In this document: one piece after another, positions 7,216 through 19,955 of the stretch
Numbering within the stretch: position 1 is the stretch's first letter
How the letters are laid out: every line of letters begins with the position of its first letter
Assembly: GCA_015062535.1 (NCBI GenBank)
Contig: SUUK01000002.1
Coordinates: 98,724-162,723 of the forward strand
DNA from: Alphaproteobacteria bacterium
GTDB taxonomy: Bacteria; Pseudomonadota; Alphaproteobacteria; RF32; CAG-239
DNA: 64,000 nucleotides
Direction: 5' to 3'
The notes under the pieces: model-generated
What the model was told of the DNA's origin: nothing
The model's database searches: none
The model's input: only the letters and a program-made list of their open reading frames with translations
Program-made: the position numbers and the translations under genes

Positions 7216-7292
7216 TGGTGCACCCGGCGAGGTTCGAACTCGCAACCTTTGGCGTCGGAGGCCAACACTCTATCCAGTTGAGCTACGGGTAC
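7216..7292 (-). tRNA. tRNA-Arg (anticodon CCG)
   Basis: Reverse complement folds as cloverleaf: acceptor GTACCCG/CGGGTGC+A+CCA, anticodon stem TTGGC/GCCAA with loop CTCCGAC, T-arm GGTTCGAAC; close to E. coli argX-type sequence. Confidence 0.85.
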
Positions 7293-7435
7293 GATTTTAT
7301 CGATAAGATGTGTTTTATATTATAAAAATCGTAAAAAATCTAGTTTTTTTTAAAGTTTTTTAGAAGATTTTACTTGACTTATTAGGATTATGTTTGTATG
7401 TATGAGCAAAAGTTTTTTGAGTAAAGGATAAAAAA

Positions 7436-7720
7436 ATGGCTAAGAAATGTGAAATTTCAGGCACTGGTGTTATGAGCGGTAACAATGTTAGCCACGCTAA
7501 CAATAGAACACGCCGTCGCTTTTTGCCTAATCTTCAAGTAGTTTCTCTTTTGAGTGAAGCTTTGGGTAAAGTTTATAAATTGAGAATCTGCACAAAAACT
7601 CTTCGTTCTATTGAACACAAGGGTGGTTTGGATGCTTATTTGATGGCTACTCCTGATAGTAAGTTATCTGAAGAAGCAAAGAAAATTAAAAAAGTTGTTG
7701 CAGGCAAAGTTTCTGCTTAA
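7436..7720 (+). CDS. rpmB: 50S ribosomal protein L28 (long alphaproteobacterial form)
   Basis: MAKKCEISGTGVMSGNNVSHANNRTRRRFLPNLQ; 94 aa as in Rickettsia-type L28. Confidence 0.92.
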   Translation: MAKKCEISGTGVMSGNNVSHANNRTRRRFLPNLQVVSLLSEALGKVYKLRICTKTLRSIEHKGGLDAYLMATPDSKLSEEAKKIKKVVAGKVSA

Positions 7721-7750
7721 TATAAATTTGCTTATAAAGTATGAGTTCTA

Positions 7751-7776
7751 AAGGTCGCTTTGGGCGACCTTTTTTG
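7751..7776 (+). terminator. Rho-independent terminator after rpmB
   Basis: aggtcgc/gcgacct stem followed by TTTTT; a second convergent hairpin (ccgtaaatca/tgatttacgg, about 7789..7812) serves the minus-strand gene. Confidence 0.6.
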
Positions 7777-7820
7777 TATATAAAAACACCGTAAATCAAA
7801 AATGATTTACGGTATTTGTT

Positions 7821-8219
7821 TTAGCCAATGGCGCAGAGGTAGACTTTGTCTTGAAAAATCTTCTCTAAATCTTTGCACTTGTTAAGTAATTGTTGTGTTC
7901 TCATGAGTGCAAGGATGAAAAGTACAATCATTGTAATTGTGTATCCCCAAAAATAACCGCTTGATAGCGGAAAAATGAAGAAAACCCACACAAAAAATGA
8001 AAGAGCAAAGAACATTACTCCGAGTGGAACTGCTTTTAGAAGTAGGTTAAGAACTTTTTGATGTGCTTTAAATGCGTCTGCTTCAACAGTGGATTTTGCG
8101 AAAATTGCAAGTCCGTCGTTAATTTTGCAGAAAACATCAAAACCAGCTTCATGTGGTTGTTTTTTCTTGTCAGCAACGAAACGTGTTGTTGCTTTTTCTT
8201 TTAATAATTGAGATGACAT
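7821..8219 (-). CDS. small membrane protein, paralog family member 1 (soluble N-terminus + 2 TM)
   Basis: 132 aa; N-terminal QLLKEKA... then two hydrophobic helices; paralogous to 8338..8730 and 8862..9254. Confidence 0.55.
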   Translation of the reverse strand: MSSQLLKEKATTRFVADKKKQPHEAGFDVFCKINDGLAIFAKSTVEADAFKAHQKVLNLLLKAVPLGVMFFALSFFVWVFFIFPLSSGYFWGYTITMIVLFILALMRTQQLLNKCKDLEKIFQDKVYLCAIG

Positions 8220-8337
8220 ACTGTGTAAAATTTTTGCATAAGATAATAATTTAGTTGTTTGGTCAGTTTAGAATATTTTATTTAAAATGCAATAGAGAAT
8301 TAAATAAAAAAAACCTACCTCTAGGGTAGGTTTTTCA

Positions 8338-8861: not shown

Positions 8862-9254
8862 TTAATCTTTAATTTTAATTAGTGTGATTTGATTGTTTTG
8901 GATTTTATTTAAGCGGTAAAGCTTGTATAAACTCCATAACAAAATCAAGATTGGCGTTGCAATTGATAAACTCATTAGAGTAGTTACGTCGGTGTTGTTT
9001 ACCATTGCTAGCGCATCTGTAATGTACGTACAAGTTCCGGCGACAACAGGCAAGACAACAATAATTCCAAGAAGTGGAATTAAATATTGTAGTATAAGCT
9101 CTTCATAAAAAAAGGCTCGCAGAACTTTTTCGTCTGGCGCATAGACGAAGTGATTATTCCAAATTGCAATTGAAGAACAATTGGCTTCGTCAGGGGTTTT
9201 GCCGAACTGTTGTTTGTACTTTTGGTACGCTTTTTCTAATAATTGTTTATTCAT
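8862..9254 (-). CDS. small membrane protein, paralog family member 3
   Basis: 130 aa; KQLLEKAYQKYKQQFGKTPDE...WNNHFVYAPDE then 2 TM; C-terminal ...NNQITLIKIKD parallels paralog 2. Confidence 0.55.
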   Translation of the reverse strand: MNKQLLEKAYQKYKQQFGKTPDEANCSSIAIWNNHFVYAPDEKVLRAFFYEELILQYLIPLLGIIVVLPVVAGTCTYITDALAMVNNTDVTTLMSLSIATPILILLWSLYKLYRLNKIQNNQITLIKIKD

Positions 9255-9374: not shown

Positions 9375-9451
9375 CGGGACGTAGTTCAGCCTGGTAGAGC
9401 GCATGCATGGGGTGCATGAAGTCGGAGGTTCGAATCCTCTCGTCCCGACCA
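9375..9451 (+). tRNA. tRNA-Pro (anticodon GGG)
   Basis: CGGGACGTAGTTCAGCCTGGTAGAGCGCATGCATGGGGTGCATGAAGTCGGAGGTTCGAATCCTCTCGTCCCGACCA; near-identical architecture to E. coli proL; anticodon loop ATGGGGT. Confidence 0.9.
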
Positions 9452-9502
9452 AATTTTTGAATGCTTATATATAAATACAGATAAACATAAAGGAATTGGT
9501 CG

Positions 9503-10168
9503 ATGATTATCAAAAATATATTTTGGGATGTTGATGGTGTTTTAGCAAACTTGAATTATGCATATTATAATTTTTTAACAAAACATCCAAAATATGCTCC
9601 TATGTATGGCAATATCACCTGGGAACAATTGCCTGAAGTTTTGCCCATAGTTCCAAAATATGGTGCATTAGAATTAAAGACTCATCCAACACTTGGAACT
9701 GAAATGGATTATGATTTTTGTCATTCTTTTGAGTTTTTTACAAATAGACCTTTGTATCCAAATGTTATTGAAACATTAAAAGAATTTCATCAAAAGGGAT
9801 ATCGTCAGTTTACAATGTCTGCTACTTTTGATGTTGAAACAAAGACTAAGTTTTTGAATAAATTGCTTGCTCCTGTTACTGACTTTTTGACGATTAAATG
9901 TGTGCAACATGGTAAGTTTATGCATGATACAGCAAAAGAAGATATGTTAAAGAGTTGTTTTGAAGAATATGGGCTTAAAGCTGAGGAAACAATTTTGGTT
10001 GATGATAGGATTTATAACCAATATGCAACAATTAATGCAGGGGCTAATCCGATTAGATATCGTTGTGAATTTACATCTGATTTGCCAGAAGAGTTGAAAT
10101 GGATTCCAGAAGTTAGAAGTATGGAAGAATTAAAAGACTGGTTAAACAAAAATACAACAATGGAATAA
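9503..10168 (+). CDS. HAD-superfamily hydrolase (paralog 1)
   Basis: 221 aa; motif I WDVDGVL and motif IV ILVDDR. Confidence 0.65.
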   Translation: MIIKNIFWDVDGVLANLNYAYYNFLTKHPKYAPMYGNITWEQLPEVLPIVPKYGALELKTHPTLGTEMDYDFCHSFEFFTNRPLYPNVIETLKEFHQKGYRQFTMSATFDVETKTKFLNKLLAPVTDFLTIKCVQHGKFMHDTAKEDMLKSCFEEYGLKAEETILVDDRIYNQYATINAGANPIRYRCEFTSDLPEELKWIPEVRSMEELKDWLNKNTTME

Positions 10169-10188
10169 TTGGTTAATAAAATAAAAAA

Positions 10189-10221
10189 GACCTCAAACTA
10201 AAGTGATTGAGGTCTTTTTTT
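10189..10221. terminator. bidirectional Rho-independent terminator between convergent genes
   Basis: gacctcaa...ttgaggtc hairpin flanked by A-run upstream and T-run downstream. Confidence 0.55.
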
Positions 10222-10222
10222 G

Positions 10223-10564
10223 TTACTTTTTGAATAGCGGAATCATTACAGAGATTGCAAATGAAGCAAAAAGTCCGCAAGGGATAGCTATTCCTATGTT
10301 TATACGCTCTTCTGCGAGGTAAGAAAGAATGAACAACATAGCAACAATGTACAACATGATGCTCCCCATGAAGAACATAACTAAATTTTTAGTTTTGCTT
10401 TTTTCTTCAGGAGTGGCTTTGGTGGTGTAGATGTTTGGATGCTTTTTTTCCCACCGTTTGAAATAAAATAGGAAAGTTAGGCACATCAAAATACCAGAAC
10501 ACCCCATTAAGCAAATGATTTGCTTATAATCTTCAAGCATAATAAATAAATTTAAGTTAAACAA
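10223..10564 (-). CDS. hypothetical small integral membrane protein
   Basis: 113 aa, 3 predicted hydrophobic helices; true start may be the internal MLEDYKQ Met. Confidence 0.45.
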   Translation of the reverse strand: MFNLNLFIMLEDYKQIICLMGCSGILMCLTFLFYFKRWEKKHPNIYTTKATPEEKSKTKNLVMFFMGSIMLYIVAMLFILSYLAEERINIGIAIPCGLFASFAISVMIPLFKK

Positions 10565-10682
10565 AATAATTAGTAATTGATGGAAATTTTAGGCATAAAA
10601 TTTTTTTAGTCAATGAATTTTCGTGACTTTATTGGTTTTTTATGTTATAGTTATTAATATTATTTCTTTTGAATATAGGAAT

Positions 10683-11570
10683 ATGGTGATGGAAGATAAA
10701 AAGAAAGCGATGGTTATTTTAGATGTAGATGGAGTGCTAAATAGCTATTCTAATCACCGTTTTTATATGAAATTTATCATGAGAAGTTTAAGGGGGTTAT
10801 CGAAAGTTCATGGTAAGAAAAAATTATTTACAGAAATTGTAAATTTGAAAAAACACGGTGGAGCAAATGGATTATTTGTGTTTGCTAAAAAATATTGTGG
10901 TGATGATGCAAAGTATGATAAATTTTGTTATGATTTGATGAATACTCTTAATTATGATCGTATTTCATACGACCCATCAATGAAGAAAATGATGGAAAGG
11001 CTTAGTAGTTTAGGAAATATTTGTATTAGAAGCGATGGTTTGGATGATATGGCTAGAGCTGTATGGATGAGAGTTATTGAAAATAAACCATCTTCGGAAA
11101 TAAAAACAGAGTTAAGAAGAAGACGAACTGAAGAAAGTGATAGAATTGTTGAATTTTGCGGTAAAAAAGTTTGGTTTAGTGGTATTGAGGATAATGAATT
11201 TAAGCTAAAAAAAGATAAGGAAAGTTGGAAAATATTTTCTAATAAACATAAAGTTGATATAGAAAAATCGGTTTTATTAGATGATAGCAAAAAAAATCTT
11301 AATGTTGCTCAAAGTCTTGGAATGACTACTGTTCATATTAGTGTTTTGGATAGTTTTTTGCAAAAATCAAAGTTTGGTACTGTGTTTGGTTGGAGCTTGA
11401 CTGATGTTTTAGGAGAGAAGTTATCTAAAACATTGGAAAAATATAGTATTTCTTATGGTAAAAAAGTTAATGTAAGTGAGTTGTTTAAAACAATATTTAA
11501 AAAAACAACAAAGACTGATGATAGAGTTCTTGGAGAGAATAAAAAAAGTAATTTTGATAAATCAAGATGA
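10683..11570 (+). CDS. HAD-superfamily hydrolase (paralog 2) with C-terminal Lys-rich extension
   Basis: ILDVDGVLN motif I and VLLDDSKKNLNVAQSLGMTTVHI motif III/IV; ATG 10683 preceded by AGGA; track ORF starts upstream at 10623. Confidence 0.6.
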   Translation: MVMEDKKKAMVILDVDGVLNSYSNHRFYMKFIMRSLRGLSKVHGKKKLFTEIVNLKKHGGANGLFVFAKKYCGDDAKYDKFCYDLMNTLNYDRISYDPSMKKMMERLSSLGNICIRSDGLDDMARAVWMRVIENKPSSEIKTELRRRRTEESDRIVEFCGKKVWFSGIEDNEFKLKKDKESWKIFSNKHKVDIEKSVLLDDSKKNLNVAQSLGMTTVHISVLDSFLQKSKFGTVFGWSLTDVLGEKLSKTLEKYSISYGKKVNVSELFKTIFKKTTKTDDRVLGENKKSNFDKSR

Positions 11571-11662
11571 TAGTGAAAATTTTATAATTTAAAACTTGAT
11601 AAATTTATTTAAGTATGCTAGTTTTACAGGGTTTATTGTATTATTTTTAAATTTTTACGTAT

Positions 11663-12061
11663 ATGAATAAAGAAAAAATTTTGTATCGTGTGTCATCCAT
11701 TTCATGTATTTTGGGTGTTTGTTGTTTTGTGTTTAGCATATTGGCTAGCGAGACTTGGGCTGCTATAGTTTGTTTTGTTTTTATGATTATGTTTGCGGTT
11801 TGTGAAGCATGGGCTGATAATATTAAGGCGGACAGAGGTCCTCTTAGTTATAAGAAAAGAGTGAGTGCTCTTAAGTTTGTAGCTGAGAAAAAAGCCGGTA
11901 CTCCGGAAGAGTTTATTACTGAGCATAGTAAAGAGCTTTATGACTGTTTTTTGAAACATGGGTATATTCACGAATTTGCCGTTGAAGAAGGCAATGAAGC
12001 AAACAGAAAATGGGAAGTAACAAAGGTTGGCATGCGGAAAAAAGTTGAAATTTGTTCTTAA
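11663..12061 (+). CDS. hypothetical membrane protein (2 TM + soluble C-terminal domain)
   Basis: 132 aa; hydrophobic N-terminal 60 aa then charged domain. Confidence 0.45.
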   Translation: MNKEKILYRVSSISCILGVCCFVFSILASETWAAIVCFVFMIMFAVCEAWADNIKADRGPLSYKKRVSALKFVAEKKAGTPEEFITEHSKELYDCFLKHGYIHEFAVEEGNEANRKWEVTKVGMRKKVEICS

Positions 12062-12068
12062 AATTAAA

Positions 12069-12094
12069 GGATGGGTAAAACCATCCTTTTTTTT
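12069..12094 (+). terminator. Rho-independent terminator
   Basis: ggatgg gtaaaa ccatcc followed by T8. Confidence 0.6.
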
Positions 12095-12277
12095 GAAATA
12101 GAATATGGTAAAAGTATTGACTTATGTGACATGGGTTTGGTATTAGTTATATTAATGTGGGGATTTATTTCTCTATATTAAAGCTCTCTAAAAGAGGGCT
12201 TTTTTTGTTTTTAAATTTTAAGTTAAAGAGTTATTACCGAAAGGTTGTAGCTCTTTTTTATATGAAAGGATAAAATT

Positions 12278-13429
12278 ATGACATATAATTTAATGGACTT
12301 GGTTGATGAGAGTAAACTTGCTACAAAAAGAGAAAATAAGAAAAAACTTCATAAACTTTTAGATAAATATGGAAGTGTGGAAGAAATTGAGCGAAGTGGA
12401 GATTTGAGAGATAATTTTGAGCTTGATTTTGCAAGAATTGATGGTGCGTTAGATGAAGTGTTAGAAGAAAGGAAATTAGGGTATAGAGAGCCACAATCTT
12501 CTAGTGATGATGAAATAAAAACAAATGTGAAGAAGTCTAATTCATTGCTTCCGGATGATGAGGATTTTTCTTTGGAGGGATTAAGGCTTTCTGATGAGCA
12601 AAGGAGGACAATTGATAGGCTTGATATGACAAATCAGTTAGCGGTAATTAGGGCGCTTCGAGAACAACAAGGAGTTAAGAAACCAAAGCCTAAGAAGGAA
12701 AATTCAGAAGCATCTAAAAGTGAGCTTGATGTTTTAAGAGAAAAGGTTGATAAGGCAAATCGGGAGATAAAAGTTGCAGATAATGAACATAAAAGAACAA
12801 AGAGTGATGCAGAAGTGGAGAAAGAGGATAATAAGAAAGGATATAAACAAGCTGATGATATACAAAAGCAAAGAATTTTATCACCTAATGAAATTATTAC
12901 TGATTATTTAAATGATAATTTCTATTCAACTCTAGGATATAAAGAGTCGTCAAATGATTACCACAAAAGGCTTAATGATAAACAAGGTGTTGGAGCTGTT
13001 GGAAAATATCAATTTAGAAAACCAGCCTTTCAAGAAACAGGATTTATGGATAAAAATGGTAATTTTACTGGAAAATATGGCGTAAATTCTGTAAGAGATT
13101 TTCTAAATAATCCTGAAGTGCAAGAAAAGGCTGTTCGCGAATTATTGAAAAAAAATTACAATTATATGATTAATTATAAGGTATTACATCTGTTAGGAAA
13201 CACAATTTCGGGAAAAGTTGCAGATTTTCCTATTACTATATCTGGAATGTTAGCAGCTTCTCATAAAGAAGGTGGACCGATGACTGCAAAATATTTAAAA
13301 TCTCTTGAAAAAAACAAAGATGGATTGTATTATCTTCCATATCATAAATATAAAGGTAATACATTAAGGAGTTTTTTGGCAATTGAAACGAGGTTACGTG
13401 AATTTTCAGAGCTTAATACTGACAATTAG
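12278..13429 (+). CDS. hypothetical protein: charged coiled-coil-like N-terminal region + C-terminal lytic transglycosylase (GH23/SLT)-like domain; no signal peptide
   Basis: 383 aa; C-terminal LGYKESSNDY...GAVGKYQF...DFLNNPEVQEKAVRELL...AASHKEGGP parallels SLT motifs ES...GAxGLMQ...dPetNi...AYNaGpg. Confidence 0.5.
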   Translation: MTYNLMDLVDESKLATKRENKKKLHKLLDKYGSVEEIERSGDLRDNFELDFARIDGALDEVLEERKLGYREPQSSSDDEIKTNVKKSNSLLPDDEDFSLEGLRLSDEQRRTIDRLDMTNQLAVIRALREQQGVKKPKPKKENSEASKSELDVLREKVDKANREIKVADNEHKRTKSDAEVEKEDNKKGYKQADDIQKQRILSPNEIITDYLNDNFYSTLGYKESSNDYHKRLNDKQGVGAVGKYQFRKPAFQETGFMDKNGNFTGKYGVNSVRDFLNNPEVQEKAVRELLKKNYNYMINYKVLHLLGNTISGKVADFPITISGMLAASHKEGGPMTAKYLKSLEKNKDGLYYLPYHKYKGNTLRSFLAIETRLREFSELNTDN

Positions 13430-14027
13430 TATTGTTTTGGGTTTATCTTATGGTAAAGCTAATGCTTTACCACAAGATTGGCCCTGTTTTGATTTTGAGT
13501 TAAATAAAGTTGAAGTAATAGCAGATAATAAAGATGAATTTGAATATAAATATAAAGGTGAAACATCTTTATACACAATAGAAATTAATTTAATAGGAAA
13601 CTATCAAGACTTAAATTTATTTGCAAATTGTGGAAGTGCTGGTTGTGGTGGAACTATAAGTGAGAATAAAACCGGTAAATCTGAAAATTTAAGATTTTTT
13701 TGTGAAAACTATAGTGATGATTATTCAAAAGTGAAATGTAGTATTGTAAAAGGTGATGAATTTATTTTTAATCAAATTAACGGAACTTATCAAGCAAATT
13801 ATTGTTTAGATGATAAAACAAAAATTCTAACCTTTGATAAAAATAAGTGTGATAATTGTCATTGTGTGATTTATGGGAAAAATGATACTCAGACACTATT
13901 AAAAATGGGGTGTGATTTTAGGGATAATGTTGCACATTGTTTTAGTTATGCAGGGTATGAAGAGTGGCGTAATTTTGAAAATAATGAGAATGATTTTAAG
14001 AATTGTGTTAAATTGAAGTTTGATTAA
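13398..14027 (+). CDS. secreted cysteine-rich protein (signal peptide; at least 14 Cys), overlapping the end of the upstream gene
   Basis: Probable GTG start at 13398 giving VNFQSLILTISIVLGLSYGKANA signal peptide; mature part rich in Cys (CGSAGCGG, KCDNCHCVIYG, GCDFRDNVAHC); track ORF starts at TTG 13383. Confidence 0.5.
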   Translation: MNFQSLILTISIVLGLSYGKANALPQDWPCFDFELNKVEVIADNKDEFEYKYKGETSLYTIEINLIGNYQDLNLFANCGSAGCGGTISENKTGKSENLRFFCENYSDDYSKVKCSIVKGDEFIFNQINGTYQANYCLDDKTKILTFDKNKCDNCHCVIYGKNDTQTLLKMGCDFRDNVAHCFSYAGYEEWRNFENNENDFKNCVKLKFD

Positions 14028-14488
14028 AACCTAAAACCATCATTTTTTGCATCTAGTATAACTTCTAAAATACGATATATTTCAGAGGTTATACTTTTTT
14101 CTAAAATTAATTTTCCTAAAGATGTATCTTTATCATTGTTTTCTTTACACCATGAAGTTTCATTATTTTGTTGGCAGAAAATTATAATGCGGTAAAGGTT
14201 TTGGTTATCCTTTTCTATATTGTTTATGGTTTTTTTTAGATTTTCTATTTCTGTTTTTTCAATAAATGTTGAAGATATTTGTATAATTTTATTTTTTAAG
14301 CATTGACGGAGTTTTCTCTCGTTTTTTACATCTTCAATATTTGCTTTTACGCTATTTTGTATATTGGTTTTATTAATTGTTTTTTCGCAATTTTCATATA
14401 TAGATTGGGCAGTAAGAGTATTTATTGTTTGAGCATTTGCAATACTAATAGCAAATAAAAAACTGAAAAATATTAAAAACTTTTTCAT
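14024..14488 (-). CDS. hypothetical secreted protein
   Basis: 154 aa; N-terminal signal peptide MKKFLIFFSFLFAISIANAQ; Lys/Asn/Glu-rich. Confidence 0.5.
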   Translation of the reverse strand: MKKFLIFFSFLFAISIANAQTINTLTAQSIYENCEKTINKTNIQNSVKANIEDVKNERKLRQCLKNKIIQISSTFIEKTEIENLKKTINNIEKDNQNLYRIIIFCQQNNETSWCKENNDKDTSLGKLILEKSITSEIYRILEVILDAKNDGFRF

Positions 14489-14619
14489 TAAAGAGCTCCT
14501 TATAGTGATTAGGTTATGATATGAGTTTTAGGGGAAAAGTCAATAAAAGAAATGGTTGGGTAATGAGAGAGGATAAGAGTAAAGCGCCGGATAATCGACG
14601 CTTTTGGAGAATGAAACTT

Positions 14620-14913
14620 TTATATTATTCCATAAATAGCTTCTGATATTGATGGCGGTGGTATGACATTGTTGTTATCGCTTATTTTGGGGCGGATTAG
14701 CTCATTGTAAAAATAAATGATTGAAAAAACTCTTATTGAACTGGTTAAAGTCATTTGTTTGCTTTTAGTTTGGTTTATTAATTCAATTAGGTTGTTTCTT
14801 TTAATGTTTTCTTTTTTGCAGATGATATCAATTGCTTCCCATTCATCTTCTGCTAGGCGCAAACAGGTTTTTTTGTTTTCGATAACTATTATTTTGCTTG
14901 TGAGGGTTACCAA
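14620..14913 (-). CDS. ribbon-helix-helix (RHH_4-like) DNA-binding protein, tandem paralog A
   Basis: 97 aa; LRLAEDEWEAIDIICKKENIKRNNLIELI matches the RHH_4 pattern (RLsxxewxALdxIaxxegxsxnxLixxI). Confidence 0.6.
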   Translation of the reverse strand: MVTLTSKIIVIENKKTCLRLAEDEWEAIDIICKKENIKRNNLIELINQTKSKQMTLTSSIRVFSIIYFYNELIRPKISDNNNVIPPPSISEAIYGII

Positions 14914-14926
14914 TTTTTTATCCTTT

Positions 14927-15220
14927 TTATTTAGTAATTTGATTTATTGCATCATGTATTGGGCTTTTGAATTCGTTATTATTTGATGTTTGTGAGGCAT
15001 ATATGATAGAGTTTTTATAATAAATGATTGTAAACAAACGGATTGATGAAGTAAATCCAAGCTTAGGGTCTTTGTTGGCATCAATTAAATCAAAAAGGTT
15101 TTTGCGATTTATTTTTTCTCTTTGACAGATTGTATCAAGAGCTTTCCACTCGCATGGAGTAAGCTTCATGCTGGTTCTTCGTGATTTTATATCTATAACT
15201 CGACTTGATGAATGTTTCAT
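14927..15220 (-). CDS. ribbon-helix-helix (RHH_4-like) DNA-binding protein, tandem paralog B
   Basis: 97 aa; MKLTPCEWKALDTICQREKINRKNLFDLI; clear paralog of 14620..14913. Confidence 0.6.
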   Translation of the reverse strand: MKHSSSRVIDIKSRRTSMKLTPCEWKALDTICQREKINRKNLFDLIDANKDPKLGFTSSIRLFTIIYYKNSIIYASQTSNNNEFKSPIHDAINQITK

Positions 15221-15436
15221 GTGTGCTCCTGTTTGTTTTTCTATATTATGGTGAATTTGTTTTAAAATGCAACGTGTATTTGTTTTTATTTTGTTTCTTT
15301 GAGGCTTGTTATTGAATTTATTGGCTTTTTTTTGTGTAAAAGTGTGGTGTTTTTGCTATTCTAATGTAATATTTTTTATAAGATATAATAAAAAGGTTGT
15401 ATTTTAAGTAAATTTAGATTATAGAAAACATGAAAG

Positions 15437-15919
15437 GTGGAATATATGACTAGTGATTGTTTTTGGGAATTAAAAAAACTTTATGATGATATACAAAATG
15501 AGTGCTTAAGTGGAGCTATTTTGGATGTTAAACATTTTAGGGTGTATGAGGATGTTTTGAAAATTTGCTATGACTTGTTGGTTGATGCAAAAAGATATGA
15601 GGCCGTTTTTTTTAATAAAAATGAAAAAATGTCTTGTGATAAAGAAAAGATTGGCAACGATTTTAACAAATTTTATGGCTTTTCTAAATATGATGATGAA
15701 TGTGATGATATAGATAGGAAAAGGGCTGTTTTTAGTGAGTGGAAAAGTGGCGAAAATGCATACAAGAATTTGCAAGACTTTTCTTTTGAAGTAAGCAAAA
15801 AGGAAGAATTTAATTTTGATAGATGTTTTAGTTTGTTTAGTGAAGTTTTAGATAACTTAAAAAAACAAGCCTCTATTTTGGATATTAAAGAGGCTGTTTT
15901 AAGTAATATTAAAAAATAA
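15437..15919 (+). CDS. hypothetical protein
   Basis: 160 aa ORF in AT-rich islet, no recognisable motifs. Confidence 0.4.
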   Translation: MEYMTSDCFWELKKLYDDIQNECLSGAILDVKHFRVYEDVLKICYDLLVDAKRYEAVFFNKNEKMSCDKEKIGNDFNKFYGFSKYDDECDDIDRKRAVFSEWKSGENAYKNLQDFSFEVSKKEEFNFDRCFSLFSEVLDNLKKQASILDIKEAVLSNIKK

Positions 15920-15928
15920 CTATCATTG

Positions 15929-19331: not shown

Positions 19332-19943
19332 ATGGCTAGAAAATGTAAAGAAGATGCTGAAAAAACAAGACAAGCTGTTATAGAATCTGCTTTGGATGTG
19401 TTTTCTGAAAAAGGATATGCTAAGGCAACATTTGACGAGATTGCTGCACGTGCTGGATTTACAAAAGGTGCGGTTTATTGGTATTTTAGAAATAAGGCAG
19501 ACCTAGTTTCGGCTTTAATTGTTGAATATATGGAACGAAAAAGGCATGAGCTTGCTAAAAATATTCCAGAAGGTGATACTTTAGAAGATTTATTAGATTA
19601 TTTTACTCTTTGGGCAAGAGTGTTGCGTGATGATGAAAGATTTTCTAAATTTAATCGTTTTGTTATTTGTCAGATGGAATGGTCAGAGGCTGTTGTTAGT
19701 CGTGTACAAAAGAATTTAGCTACACAGACAGATTGGCATTTAGAAAAAATTAATCAAGTTTTGGTAAAATGTCAGGAACGTGGCGAACTAAAAAAAGACC
19801 TTGATTTATCTATGGTTTCGGATATTGTTCGCTCTACTTATATGGGAATCGTATTTTCATCTTTGAATAGATTTACAAGAGGGGAAATTGAAGAGAAAGT
19901 ACGAATAGGTTTAGGTTTTTTATTTGAAGGGTTAAAGAAATAG
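19332..19943 (+). CDS. acrR: TetR/AcrR family transcriptional repressor
   Basis: N-terminal TetR HTH TRQAVIESALDVFSEKGYAKATFDEIAARAGFTKGAVYWYFRNK; directly upstream of RND pump genes. Confidence 0.88.
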   Translation: MARKCKEDAEKTRQAVIESALDVFSEKGYAKATFDEIAARAGFTKGAVYWYFRNKADLVSALIVEYMERKRHELAKNIPEGDTLEDLLDYFTLWARVLRDDERFSKFNRFVICQMEWSEAVVSRVQKNLATQTDWHLEKINQVLVKCQERGELKKDLDLSMVSDIVRSTYMGIVFSSLNRFTRGEIEEKVRIGLGFLFEGLKK

Positions 19944-19955
19944 AAAGGTTTTGAA

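Follow-up and report, generated by a model that had tools for sequence, protein, structure and literature searches.

The 64,000-nucleotide (nt) stretch analysed here, referred to as the window, is a chromosomal segment of an uncultured alphaproteobacterium (contig SUUK01000002.1). It carries two overlapping genes that encode a 383-amino acid (aa) protein and a secreted cysteine-rich (Cys-rich) protein; the two are considered probable to be a cell wall hydrolase and its cognate periplasmic inhibitor, belonging to a system of swappable cassettes that is recognised by sequence comparison. The original prediction that these genes form an effector/immunity pair is supported by the computational tests available. 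The 383-aa protein appears to represent a previously undescribed family of polymorphic peptidoglycan hydrolase effectors, which so far is found almost only in uncultured, largely gut-derived Alphaproteobacteria; the related contigs are metagenome-assembled genomes of uncultured 'Alphaproteobacteria bacterium', several of which are named for human gut, roe deer colon or buffalo colon. The module fits no named family (the SLT profile, MuF and the known inhibitors are all unmatched) and is best filed with the polymorphic toxins or modular bacteriocins.

The first 184 residues of the 383-aa protein, termed N184, are on sequence grounds a new carrier domain, as a constant N-terminus is joined to swappable, unrelated C-termini in the manner of polymorphic toxins. 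Homology searches return two classes of partial match, covering either residues 1-184 only (65-96% identity, with another continuation) or residues ~200-383 only. P0001, which is 99.7% identical to the window protein (one residue different), stood in for it in exact look-up. N184 remains 72-96% identical across proteins whose C-termini belong to unrelated families, and the identity between paralogues falls at residue ~184. At least seven C-terminal types are found behind it, nearly all of them peptidoglycan glycosidases: a sister protein carries Pfam T6SS_VgrG3-like_C (E = 6e-28), GH108 occurs in four recognisable subtypes (some with PG_binding_3), and there are a GH24/T4-lysozyme-like type (EG...YLDTxGxxTIGxG) and the type found in the window protein, designated type A. 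In a more distant relative, P0154, the C-terminus matches Pfam Pesticin (E = 8e-5, below the family cut-off); a few further distant relatives have C-termini that match no assigned family and do not look like lysozymes. A check proposed with the original prediction, namely that the N-terminal domain should recur elsewhere, is thereby answered: N184 precedes other C-termini, each with its own neighbouring secreted protein.

The absence of a signal peptide from the 383-aa protein is confirmed, with 17 of the first 40 residues being charged. The N-terminus had further been described as charged and coiled-coil-like; the charge is real (45% of the N-terminal half), but AlphaFold2 predicts two small modules of short helices with disordered linkers between them and no long coiled coil. 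Residues 1-9 are predicted to be disordered, conservation extends over the first 10 residues, and the most widely kept part of the domain is the LLDKYGS core (aa 27-33). N184 is rare, with 77 clusters found by profile search among 1.84 billion representatives, and a metagenome scan added only three loci; the loci L001 and L006 each have two N184 genes, as does L007, which has a truncated copy in addition. The domain has no Pfam, NCBIfam or PDB sequence match and no structural match, and searches of Pfam, NCBIfam, PADLOC and PDB sequences with the whole 383-aa protein give nothing meaningful. A ubiquitin-like match over residues 70-160 (E = 0.012) was judged to be due to chance; remote homology to MuF was rejected, as the hhalign probability is 3% and only an 18-residue linker is aligned. 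The boundary between the constant and variable parts is marked by a junction motif with the consensus ADNE[YH]xGxKSD; the pattern NE[YH]..[TVIM][KR].D is found in 10 of the 12 full-length N184 proteins checked and close variants in the other two. A junction-like stretch, QYAENDKANxASDAEY, also precedes the type-A domain where it is fused to MuF.

The type-A domain of the window protein has, in its predicted structure, a lysozyme/lytic transglycosylase fold and is a predicted glycan-cleaving enzyme. All four of the GH23/SLT-like motifs originally quoted are present (KESSNDY at 222-228, GAVGKYQF at 239-246, DFLNNPEVQ at 274-282 and AASHKEGGP at 326-334), and their key residues are conserved in the family: E223 is invariant and S224 nearly so, and G242, Q245, H329 and G332 are invariant or nearly invariant. 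AlphaFold2 places E223 at the end of helix 213-224. Searches of Pfam and NCBIfam at E <= 0.1, including the SLT profile, give no match to the domain, and PDB sequence and profile searches give no lysozyme match; the sole sequence-profile match is PHROG 27932 ('baseplate hub subunit and tail lysozyme'), over residues 182-333 (E = 1.8e-8). The lysozyme identity that was to be checked is missed by the SLT profile search but recovered by structure prediction, in which the domain adopts an alpha-rich, lysozyme-like fold. Its matches are headed by Destabilase, an i-type lysozyme (9.4), MltE (9.1) and Cj0843c (9.1), followed by MltC (8.9), phiKZ gp144 (8.8) and Slt70 (8.3), then by Phi6 P5 and EtgA; among viral models a phage gp5/VgrG-type protein matches best (E = 1.7e-6). 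Two 90-kb IMG/VR phages encode proteins of 182 aa (L017:9836-10384) and 199 aa (L018:9785-10384), each with a hydrophobic N-terminus and a type-A-like domain (RESxSxW...GAIGKYQF...AAHLAG). These are probably signal-anchored endolysins, and because they carry a type-A-like domain the type-A family is broader in phages.

The Cys-rich protein is most likely the cognate periplasmic inhibitor of the type-A domain, as inferred from gene pairing and sequence. Its signal peptide, read from the sequence as an N-terminus ending in ANA, agrees with the original description; the count of at least 14 cysteines given there does not, as there are 12, of which 10 are invariant and two nearly invariant across 19 homologues. 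Similarly, the overlap with the effector gene is real, but its length is 47 nt from the TTG start rather than about 30 nt (32 nt under a shorter, 209-aa call). Six independent contexts place the type-A and Cys-rich genes side by side, with four different N-termini in front. Taking the window protein as the reference, the Cys-rich homologue is 55% identical in L028 (behind N184), 43% identical in L029 (behind a short N184) and 44% identical in L003-L005, where the type-A domain is fused to MuF and a 30% identical paralogue is also present; in the phage contig L061 a 55-aa acidic tail replaces the carrier and the homologue is 43% identical. Wherever flanks are available, the Cys-rich gene follows the type-A domain. 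A more distant type-A relative from a high-GC organism (33% identity; L030:844-2266) is followed by an Ivy gene (PF08816) in place of the Cys-rich family. The concern that the partner might be a housekeeping periplasmic protein is not borne out: a search of 5.8 billion proteins places only 22 clusters in its family, and no Pfam domain occurs in any of them. Neither sequence nor fold relates the Cys-rich protein to a solved chain, and it falls in none of the known lysozyme inhibitor families Ivy, PliC/MliC, PliG and Spackle (the last being covered if its chain is in the libraries).

Exchange of whole cassettes is suggested by the neighbouring genes. With signal peptides removed, the secreted proteins encoded beside N184 genes group into families, and several of these track a single C-terminal type (for example G108a, G108b and G108c); the neighbouring gene changes with the C-terminus, and orphan cassettes are found, as is expected of polymorphic toxins. 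Several of the immunity-like genes near N184 loci are convergent. In the window, the module had been described as convergent with a secreted protein and two RHH regulators; the secreted 154-aa protein, which also has a signal-peptide-like N-terminus ending in ANA, is a probable orphan immunity protein, to judge from its homologues, left over from a VgrG3-C-like C-terminus, whereas the RHH genes are not part of the module. Its homologue at L007:11221-11685 (93% protein and 95% DNA identity) lies directly after a VgrG3-C-like N184 effector, and in L029 a type-A gene and a Cys-rich gene are followed by a convergent gene of the family found after the VgrG3-like effector of L001. The left-over gene suggests that the [type-A + Cys-rich] cassette replaced an earlier VgrG3-like C-terminus, and this is supported by the DNA mosaic of the window, whose segments have their best matches in different places (see table). 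At the right-hand edge, an 83-nt stretch spanning the 5' end and upstream region of the 154-aa gene is 89-93% identical to the upstream regions of non-homologous immunity genes in L001 and L006; it may be the right-hand homology arm for cassette exchange. Orphan arrays of four to six secreted immunity-like genes of different families, without matching effectors, are present at L007:13257-19949 and L013:11067-13964. Also in L007 are an orphan C-terminal cassette at 14668-15333, namely a truncated effector whose start lies shortly ahead of the junction motif, and, at 19716-19949, what is left of a GH108 C-terminus (77 aa).

The N184 genes share a conserved promoter and leader of ~150 nt. The consensus is TATTGAC(A/T)-N3-4-TG(T/A)CA, overlapping a -35-like hexamer, with a -10-like TATnAr; terminator-like hairpin H2 precedes the start codon by about 15-20 nt in all 16 of the N184 genes examined, and H1 is present in most. 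The leader aligns over 11 loci, and compensatory changes occur in 13 of the 29 base pairs that RNAalifold predicts. A covariance model (R1) built from these 11 loci scores the window leader at 100 bits and finds the leader before four N184 genes that were left out of its building (L031, L032 twice and L033) at 66-116 bits. No Rfam family matches the leader; one match to an Rfam miRNA model, inside coding sequence, was dismissed as noise. Outside the N184 loci there are further copies of the promoter core, of the form TATTGACA..TGWCA..about 25 nt..AATGG, with two or three terminator-like hairpins after it. In L001 and L006 the core stands upstream of a podophage-like cluster's scaffold-capsid operon; in L020, which is a true relative of this phage from IMG/VR, it lies immediately beyond the 112-aa gene downstream of the portal gene; and in L011, L014, L027 and L031 it precedes a dispersed 277-280-aa tail-fibre-like gene (N-terminus phrog_1640, E about 1e-23). 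A search of IMG/VR with the 17-mer promoter core was set aside, as its 28 matches are about the number estimated to arise by chance in that collection and are uninformative apart from L020. We infer that the late regulon of this phage lineage may include the N184 effectors, whose expression would need terminator read-through.

Further links to phages come from gene position and domain fusion. In L001 and L006 an N184 gene lies directly after a terminase gene and a T7-type portal gene (PF12236, E = 2e-99); a second N184 gene occurs ~6 kb further on, followed by scaffold-like, capsid and tail-tube genes and by genes for 531-aa and 1410-aa proteins, the latter carrying LPD23. In L007 the N184 array follows a gene for a large, 1396-aa LPD23 protein. 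The type-A domain and its Cys-rich partner occur with a true MuF fusion in L003-L005, and the 25.9-kb IMG/VR contig L061 encodes, at 7316-8255 and at the contig end, a 219-aa type-A lysozyme overlapped by a gene of the Cys-rich family; L061 also has its own holin-like gene, GH24 endolysin and spanin-like genes. The N184 genes of L001 and L006 sit in a ~10-kb island (L001:998-12159, L006:2581-13067) between the portal gene and a 113-aa gene of the podophage-like cluster. Besides N184 effectors and immunity genes, this island carries a gene for a secreted ankyrin-repeat protein and one for a GH77 4-alpha-glucanotransferase; the cluster seems to be without the 419-aa and 692-823-aa tail genes of its free relatives. 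The island is considered an insertion because the portal gene directly adjoins the 112-aa gene in the free phage relatives.

Taken as a wall hydrolase with its inhibitor, the pair can be given the following proposed mechanism. After export, the Cys-rich protein would sit in the periplasm and inhibit the type-A domain by binding it, sparing the producer and its kin. The effector would be silent until late transcription of a phage-like element reads through the leader terminators; as it has no signal peptide it would exit the cell inside or on phage-like particles, or at lysis, and once released it would cut the wall of cells without the matching inhibitor. For the cassette swap, recombination would use as its arms N184 with its junction at the left and, at the right, the conserved 5' end of the immunity gene. 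Every single delivery route is tentative, its likelihood at best somewhat short of even; particle-associated delivery, as proposed for MuF toxins, is rated at about that level, with the inhibitors then working in the manner of T4 Spackle, and release as a free pesticin-like bacteriocin somewhat lower. A more far-reaching version, regarded as rather unlikely, is a system of particles derived from a domesticated podophage, akin to a gene transfer agent or tailocin, whose genes are dispersed over the chromosome. One late promoter and leader would then tie together the structural operon, the tail-fibre gene and the N184 loci; N184 would be a capsid- or particle-loading domain delivering interchangeable wall-cutting enzymes, and the arrays of secreted inhibitors with new folds would be a defence layer against particle or phage entry.

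Several observations weigh against the effector/inhibitor reading or its connection to phages. N184 was not found in 2.9 million IMG/VR contigs, and the closest free phages (55-74% portal identity) are without it, their portal gene being followed directly by the 112-aa gene; most N184 loci, the window included, lie amid housekeeping genes with no phage gene within 10 kb. The likeness of the promoter to that of the phage-like operon amounts to ~50 nt plus generic terminators, for which R1 scores are modest (23-39 bits). The C-termini are nearly all glycosidases, compared to the many activities of classical polymorphic toxins, and would suit wall penetration as well as killing. Lastly, the pairing of the G24 type with a neighbour family is less clean than that of the other types.

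The alternative that fares best, although still unlikely, is that the N184-lysozyme is an ejection or penetration protein of a resident podophage and that its partner provides superinfection exclusion, as a Spackle-like block on incoming phages with the same lysozyme. This overlaps mechanistically with the effector/inhibitor reading; the difference lies in the attacker and the beneficiary, being phage against phage or host against phage rather than one bacterium against another. T4 offers a precedent, as its periplasmic Spackle protein inhibits the gp5 tail lysozyme (PMC7677548), and the nearest viral relatives of the type-A domain are gp5-like tail lysozymes. A virion role would also suit the almost exclusive use of peptidoglycan glycosidases as C-termini, the phage-late-type promoter and leader, the portal-adjacent genes and the type-A MuF fusion; L061 carries the pair beside its own lysis cassette, and orphan inhibitor arrays would defend against phages. 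The absence of N184 from IMG/VR and from the closest free phages weighs against a virion protein, and several effector paralogues per genome in housekeeping regions would be unusual for one; furthermore, the Cys-rich protein is like no solved chain (Spackle too, if in the libraries), and a few N184 relatives have C-termini that do not look like lysozymes.

A free bacteriocin of the colicin or pesticin kind is an unlikely explanation to a similar or slightly greater degree. N184 would here be a translocation and receptor-binding module taking the lysozyme through the outer membrane of the target, release would occur by lysis, and the partner would take the role of Pim or Cmi. The layout is pesticin-like, a resemblance of layout only, with no signal peptide, disordered residues 1-9 and an adjacent immunity gene, and the overall size of the 383-aa protein is of the same order as that of pesticin; there are no secretion genes nearby, several immunity genes are convergent, and relative P0154 has the sub-threshold Pesticin match described above. 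On the other hand, no TonB/Tol box is recognisable, the N-terminal 10 residues being unlike the D/E-T-x-x-V type by eye, and N184 is small, mostly linker and without a structural match; a bacteriocin alone would also leave the portal-adjacent position and the MuF fusions unexplained.

The original prediction had named a type VI secretion system (T6SS), and a type IV secretion system (T4SS) or phage derivation, as sources of the effector. The T6SS and T4SS part is not upheld, as neither the window nor the ~10 kb around each of 13 other N184 loci contains Hcp, VgrG, PAAR, adaptor or VirB genes; the only link to delivery is with phages. That the effector is Tge- or VgrG3-like cargo, with the genes of its T6SS or T4SS at another site in the genome, is rated very unlikely, even though the sister C-terminus is a T6SS_VgrG3-like_C domain and T6SS effectors acting on peptidoglycan typically come with periplasmic immunity proteins and with arrays of orphan immunity genes; among the known T6SS trafficking domains of Pfam, none is matched by N184. 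The least credible alternative, an autolysin with an ordinary housekeeping role, or an endolysin of a prophage accompanied by a lysis accessory protein, outside any conflict system, has in its favour that lysozyme-fold enzymes without signal peptides are typical endolysins, that the signal-anchored type-A-like proteins of the 90-kb phages look like endolysins and that Ivy also regulates endogenous lytic transglycosylases, but it is rejected on the swapping of catalytic domains between unrelated families behind a retained 200-aa N-terminal extension, the several paralogues per genome, the orphan C-terminal cassettes and immunity arrays, the holin, GH24 endolysin and spanins that L061 already has, and the lack of any holin or spanin gene adjoining the window gene.

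Features of the effector module and its flanks in the window, with the segments of the DNA mosaic
Feature	Position	Strand	Remarks
Conserved promoter and leader of effector gene, ~150 nt	12117-12263	+	Motif and hairpins H0, H1, H2
Promoter/operator motif	12117-12146	+	TTGACT ... TGACA ... TATTAG
Hairpin H0	12153-12180	+	
Terminator-like hairpin H1 with T-run	12180-12202	+	Detected by terminator scan
Terminator-like hairpin H2 with T-run	12225-12256	+	
Ribosome-binding site (RBS)	12264-12270	+	GAAAGGA
Open reading frame (ORF), 383 aa	12278-13429	+	Effector candidate; from ORF list
N184 carrier domain, aa 1-184	12278-12829	+	Constant N-terminus without signal peptide
Junction motif ADNEHKRTKSD, aa 167-177	12776-12808	+	Constant/variable boundary
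Type-A lysozyme/lytic transglycosylase-like domain, aa ~205-380	12890-13417	+	E223 in KESS is the candidate catalytic residue
Cys-rich protein ORF, 214 aa	13383-14027	+	TTG start, AAGGAG 11 nt upstream of it; secreted, all-beta, 12 conserved Cys; candidate cognate immunity protein
ORF, 154 aa	14024-14488	-	Secreted, 4 Cys; convergent with Cys-rich gene, 4-nt overlap with its 3' end
Conserved 5' end and upstream region of minus-strand immunity gene	14474-14554	-	TTGACT-16-TATCAT promoter-like site, RBS, first signal-peptide codons
Promoter-like site of 154-aa gene	14543-14516	-	
RHH_4 protein	14620-14913	-	Pfam E = 7e-10
RHH_4 protein	14927-15220	-	Pfam E = 8e-11
Mosaic: N184	12225-12828		95% identical to L001
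Mosaic: type-A region	12893-14006		Matches type-A loci only, e.g. L028
Mosaic: Cys-rich gene	13357-14028		95% identical to one place in L007
Mosaic: 154-aa gene	14024-14501		95% identical to a different place in L007

The surroundings of the module are unremarkable. The rest of the window is ordinary chromosome, with genes for ribosomal protein L28, DnaJ, an RND efflux pump, LepA, glycosyltransferases, NrdD and a Mur ligase; no T6SS, T4SS or phage genes are found in it. The AT-rich setting described originally holds in direction only, as the module has 28.7% GC compared to 32.0% for the window, a slight bias. The RHH_4 genes are probably unrelated to the module because they are absent from all other N184 loci; none adjoins any of these, and the RHH_4 gene of L032 is 5 kb off the N184 locus and adjoins sspB. 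The two tandem RHH_4 paralogues of the window are ~41% identical to each other, and each has a similar 35-nt repeat (14705-14739 and 15012-15046). A tRNA-Arg(ccg) gene (7216-7292) and a tRNA-Pro(ggg) gene (9375-9451) are located just upstream of a stretch of slightly low GC content (9452-15928, 29.2% GC), which contains two HAD-like hydrolase genes, small membrane-protein genes and the effector module. This stretch may be an island; no flanking direct repeat of 18 nt or longer, as an integration scar, was found around it after tRNA-Pro. Upstream of tRNA-Pro are three tandem minus-strand genes for ~130-aa proteins (window 8862-9254 and its neighbours; L002:5544-6977), which are possible paralogues with no Pfam match recorded; the C-terminal half of the 8862-9254 product is hydrophobic. 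A 129-aa product encoded at ~26071-26460 matches Pfam SAA (serum amyloid A, PF00277), a family unusual in a bacterium.

The competitive weapons of these uncultured, largely gut-derived Alphaproteobacteria are essentially unknown. If proven, the proposed system would add a new trafficking domain, a new lysozyme-fold subfamily and a new inhibitor fold to the known effector-immunity systems, and through the shared promoter and leader, toxin genes dispersed over the chromosome would be tied to a phage-like element's late transcription. It makes two ideas testable: that phage particles or phage-driven lysis deliver wall-degrading enzymes between bacteria, and that phage entry is countered by arrays of periplasmic lysozyme inhibitors. 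Specific lysozyme blockers might also be drawn from the inhibitor families.

Amongst known enzymes, the type-A domain is closest in its motifs to the GH23/SLT transglycosylases and the goose- and i-type lysozymes, with which it shares E-S at a helix end, G-x-x-Q and A-A-x-H-x-E-G; unlike GH23/SLT members it escapes the Pfam SLT profile even at E = 0.1. Its Cys-rich partner stands outside Ivy, PliG and MliC, with the Ivy gene following a distant type-A homologue being a point of contact. The T6SS pairs Tge/Tgi and VgrG3/TsiV3 are similar in combining lysozyme-fold effectors with periplasmic immunity and orphan immunity genes, and the sister protein has a VgrG3-like C domain; the N184 loci examined differ in having no T6SS genes or trafficking domains. 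T4 gp5 and Spackle are also alike in principle, in that a small secreted protein disarms, in the periplasm, a lysozyme associated with phage, and the best viral matches of type A are gp5-like; however, the N184 effector does not form part of a baseplate protein, and the Cys-rich protein has no detectable relationship to Spackle, if Spackle is in the libraries.

Pesticin has no signal sequence, and consists of a partly unfolded translocation domain of ~40 N-terminal residues, a receptor-binding domain and a T4-lysozyme-like C-terminus; its immunity protein is periplasmic and there is no lysis gene (PMC3390615). Colicin M-type immunity genes are usually downstream on the opposite strand, and chromosomal genes of this type are often near tailocin units or genomic islands (PMC5821083). 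The window module is like pesticin/Pim and colicin M/Cmi in having no signal peptide, an N-terminal module, a C-terminal wall-targeting enzyme, an adjacent and often convergent periplasmic immunity gene, and no lysis gene. It is unlike them in that N184 has neither sequence nor fold similarity to their uptake domains and no TonB box is recognised, in that its catalytic domain is GH23-like while that of pesticin is T4-lysozyme-like, and in that N184 regulation resembles phage late transcription rather than SOS control.

The MuF polymorphic toxins of temperate phages, for which delivery via the phage head has been proposed (Zhang et al. 2012, PMC3482391; Jamet et al. 2017, PMC5576092), differ from the N184 system in several respects. 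N184 has no MuF domain (PF04233/PF06152-related), with no Pfam match and an hhalign probability of 3%; the window copy is far from phage genes, neither portal-adjacent nor in a prophage; and the putative immunity protein of the N184 system is secreted and the cargo would act in the periplasm, whereas MuF immunity proteins are cytoplasmic. The words 'lysozyme' and 'peptidoglycan' are both absent from the main text of Jamet et al. 2017 (PMC5576092). The two systems nevertheless share a constant N-terminus, a variable C-terminal toxin and a downstream immunity gene, and MuF toxin genes often lie directly after the portal gene, as do the N184 paralogues of L001 and L006.

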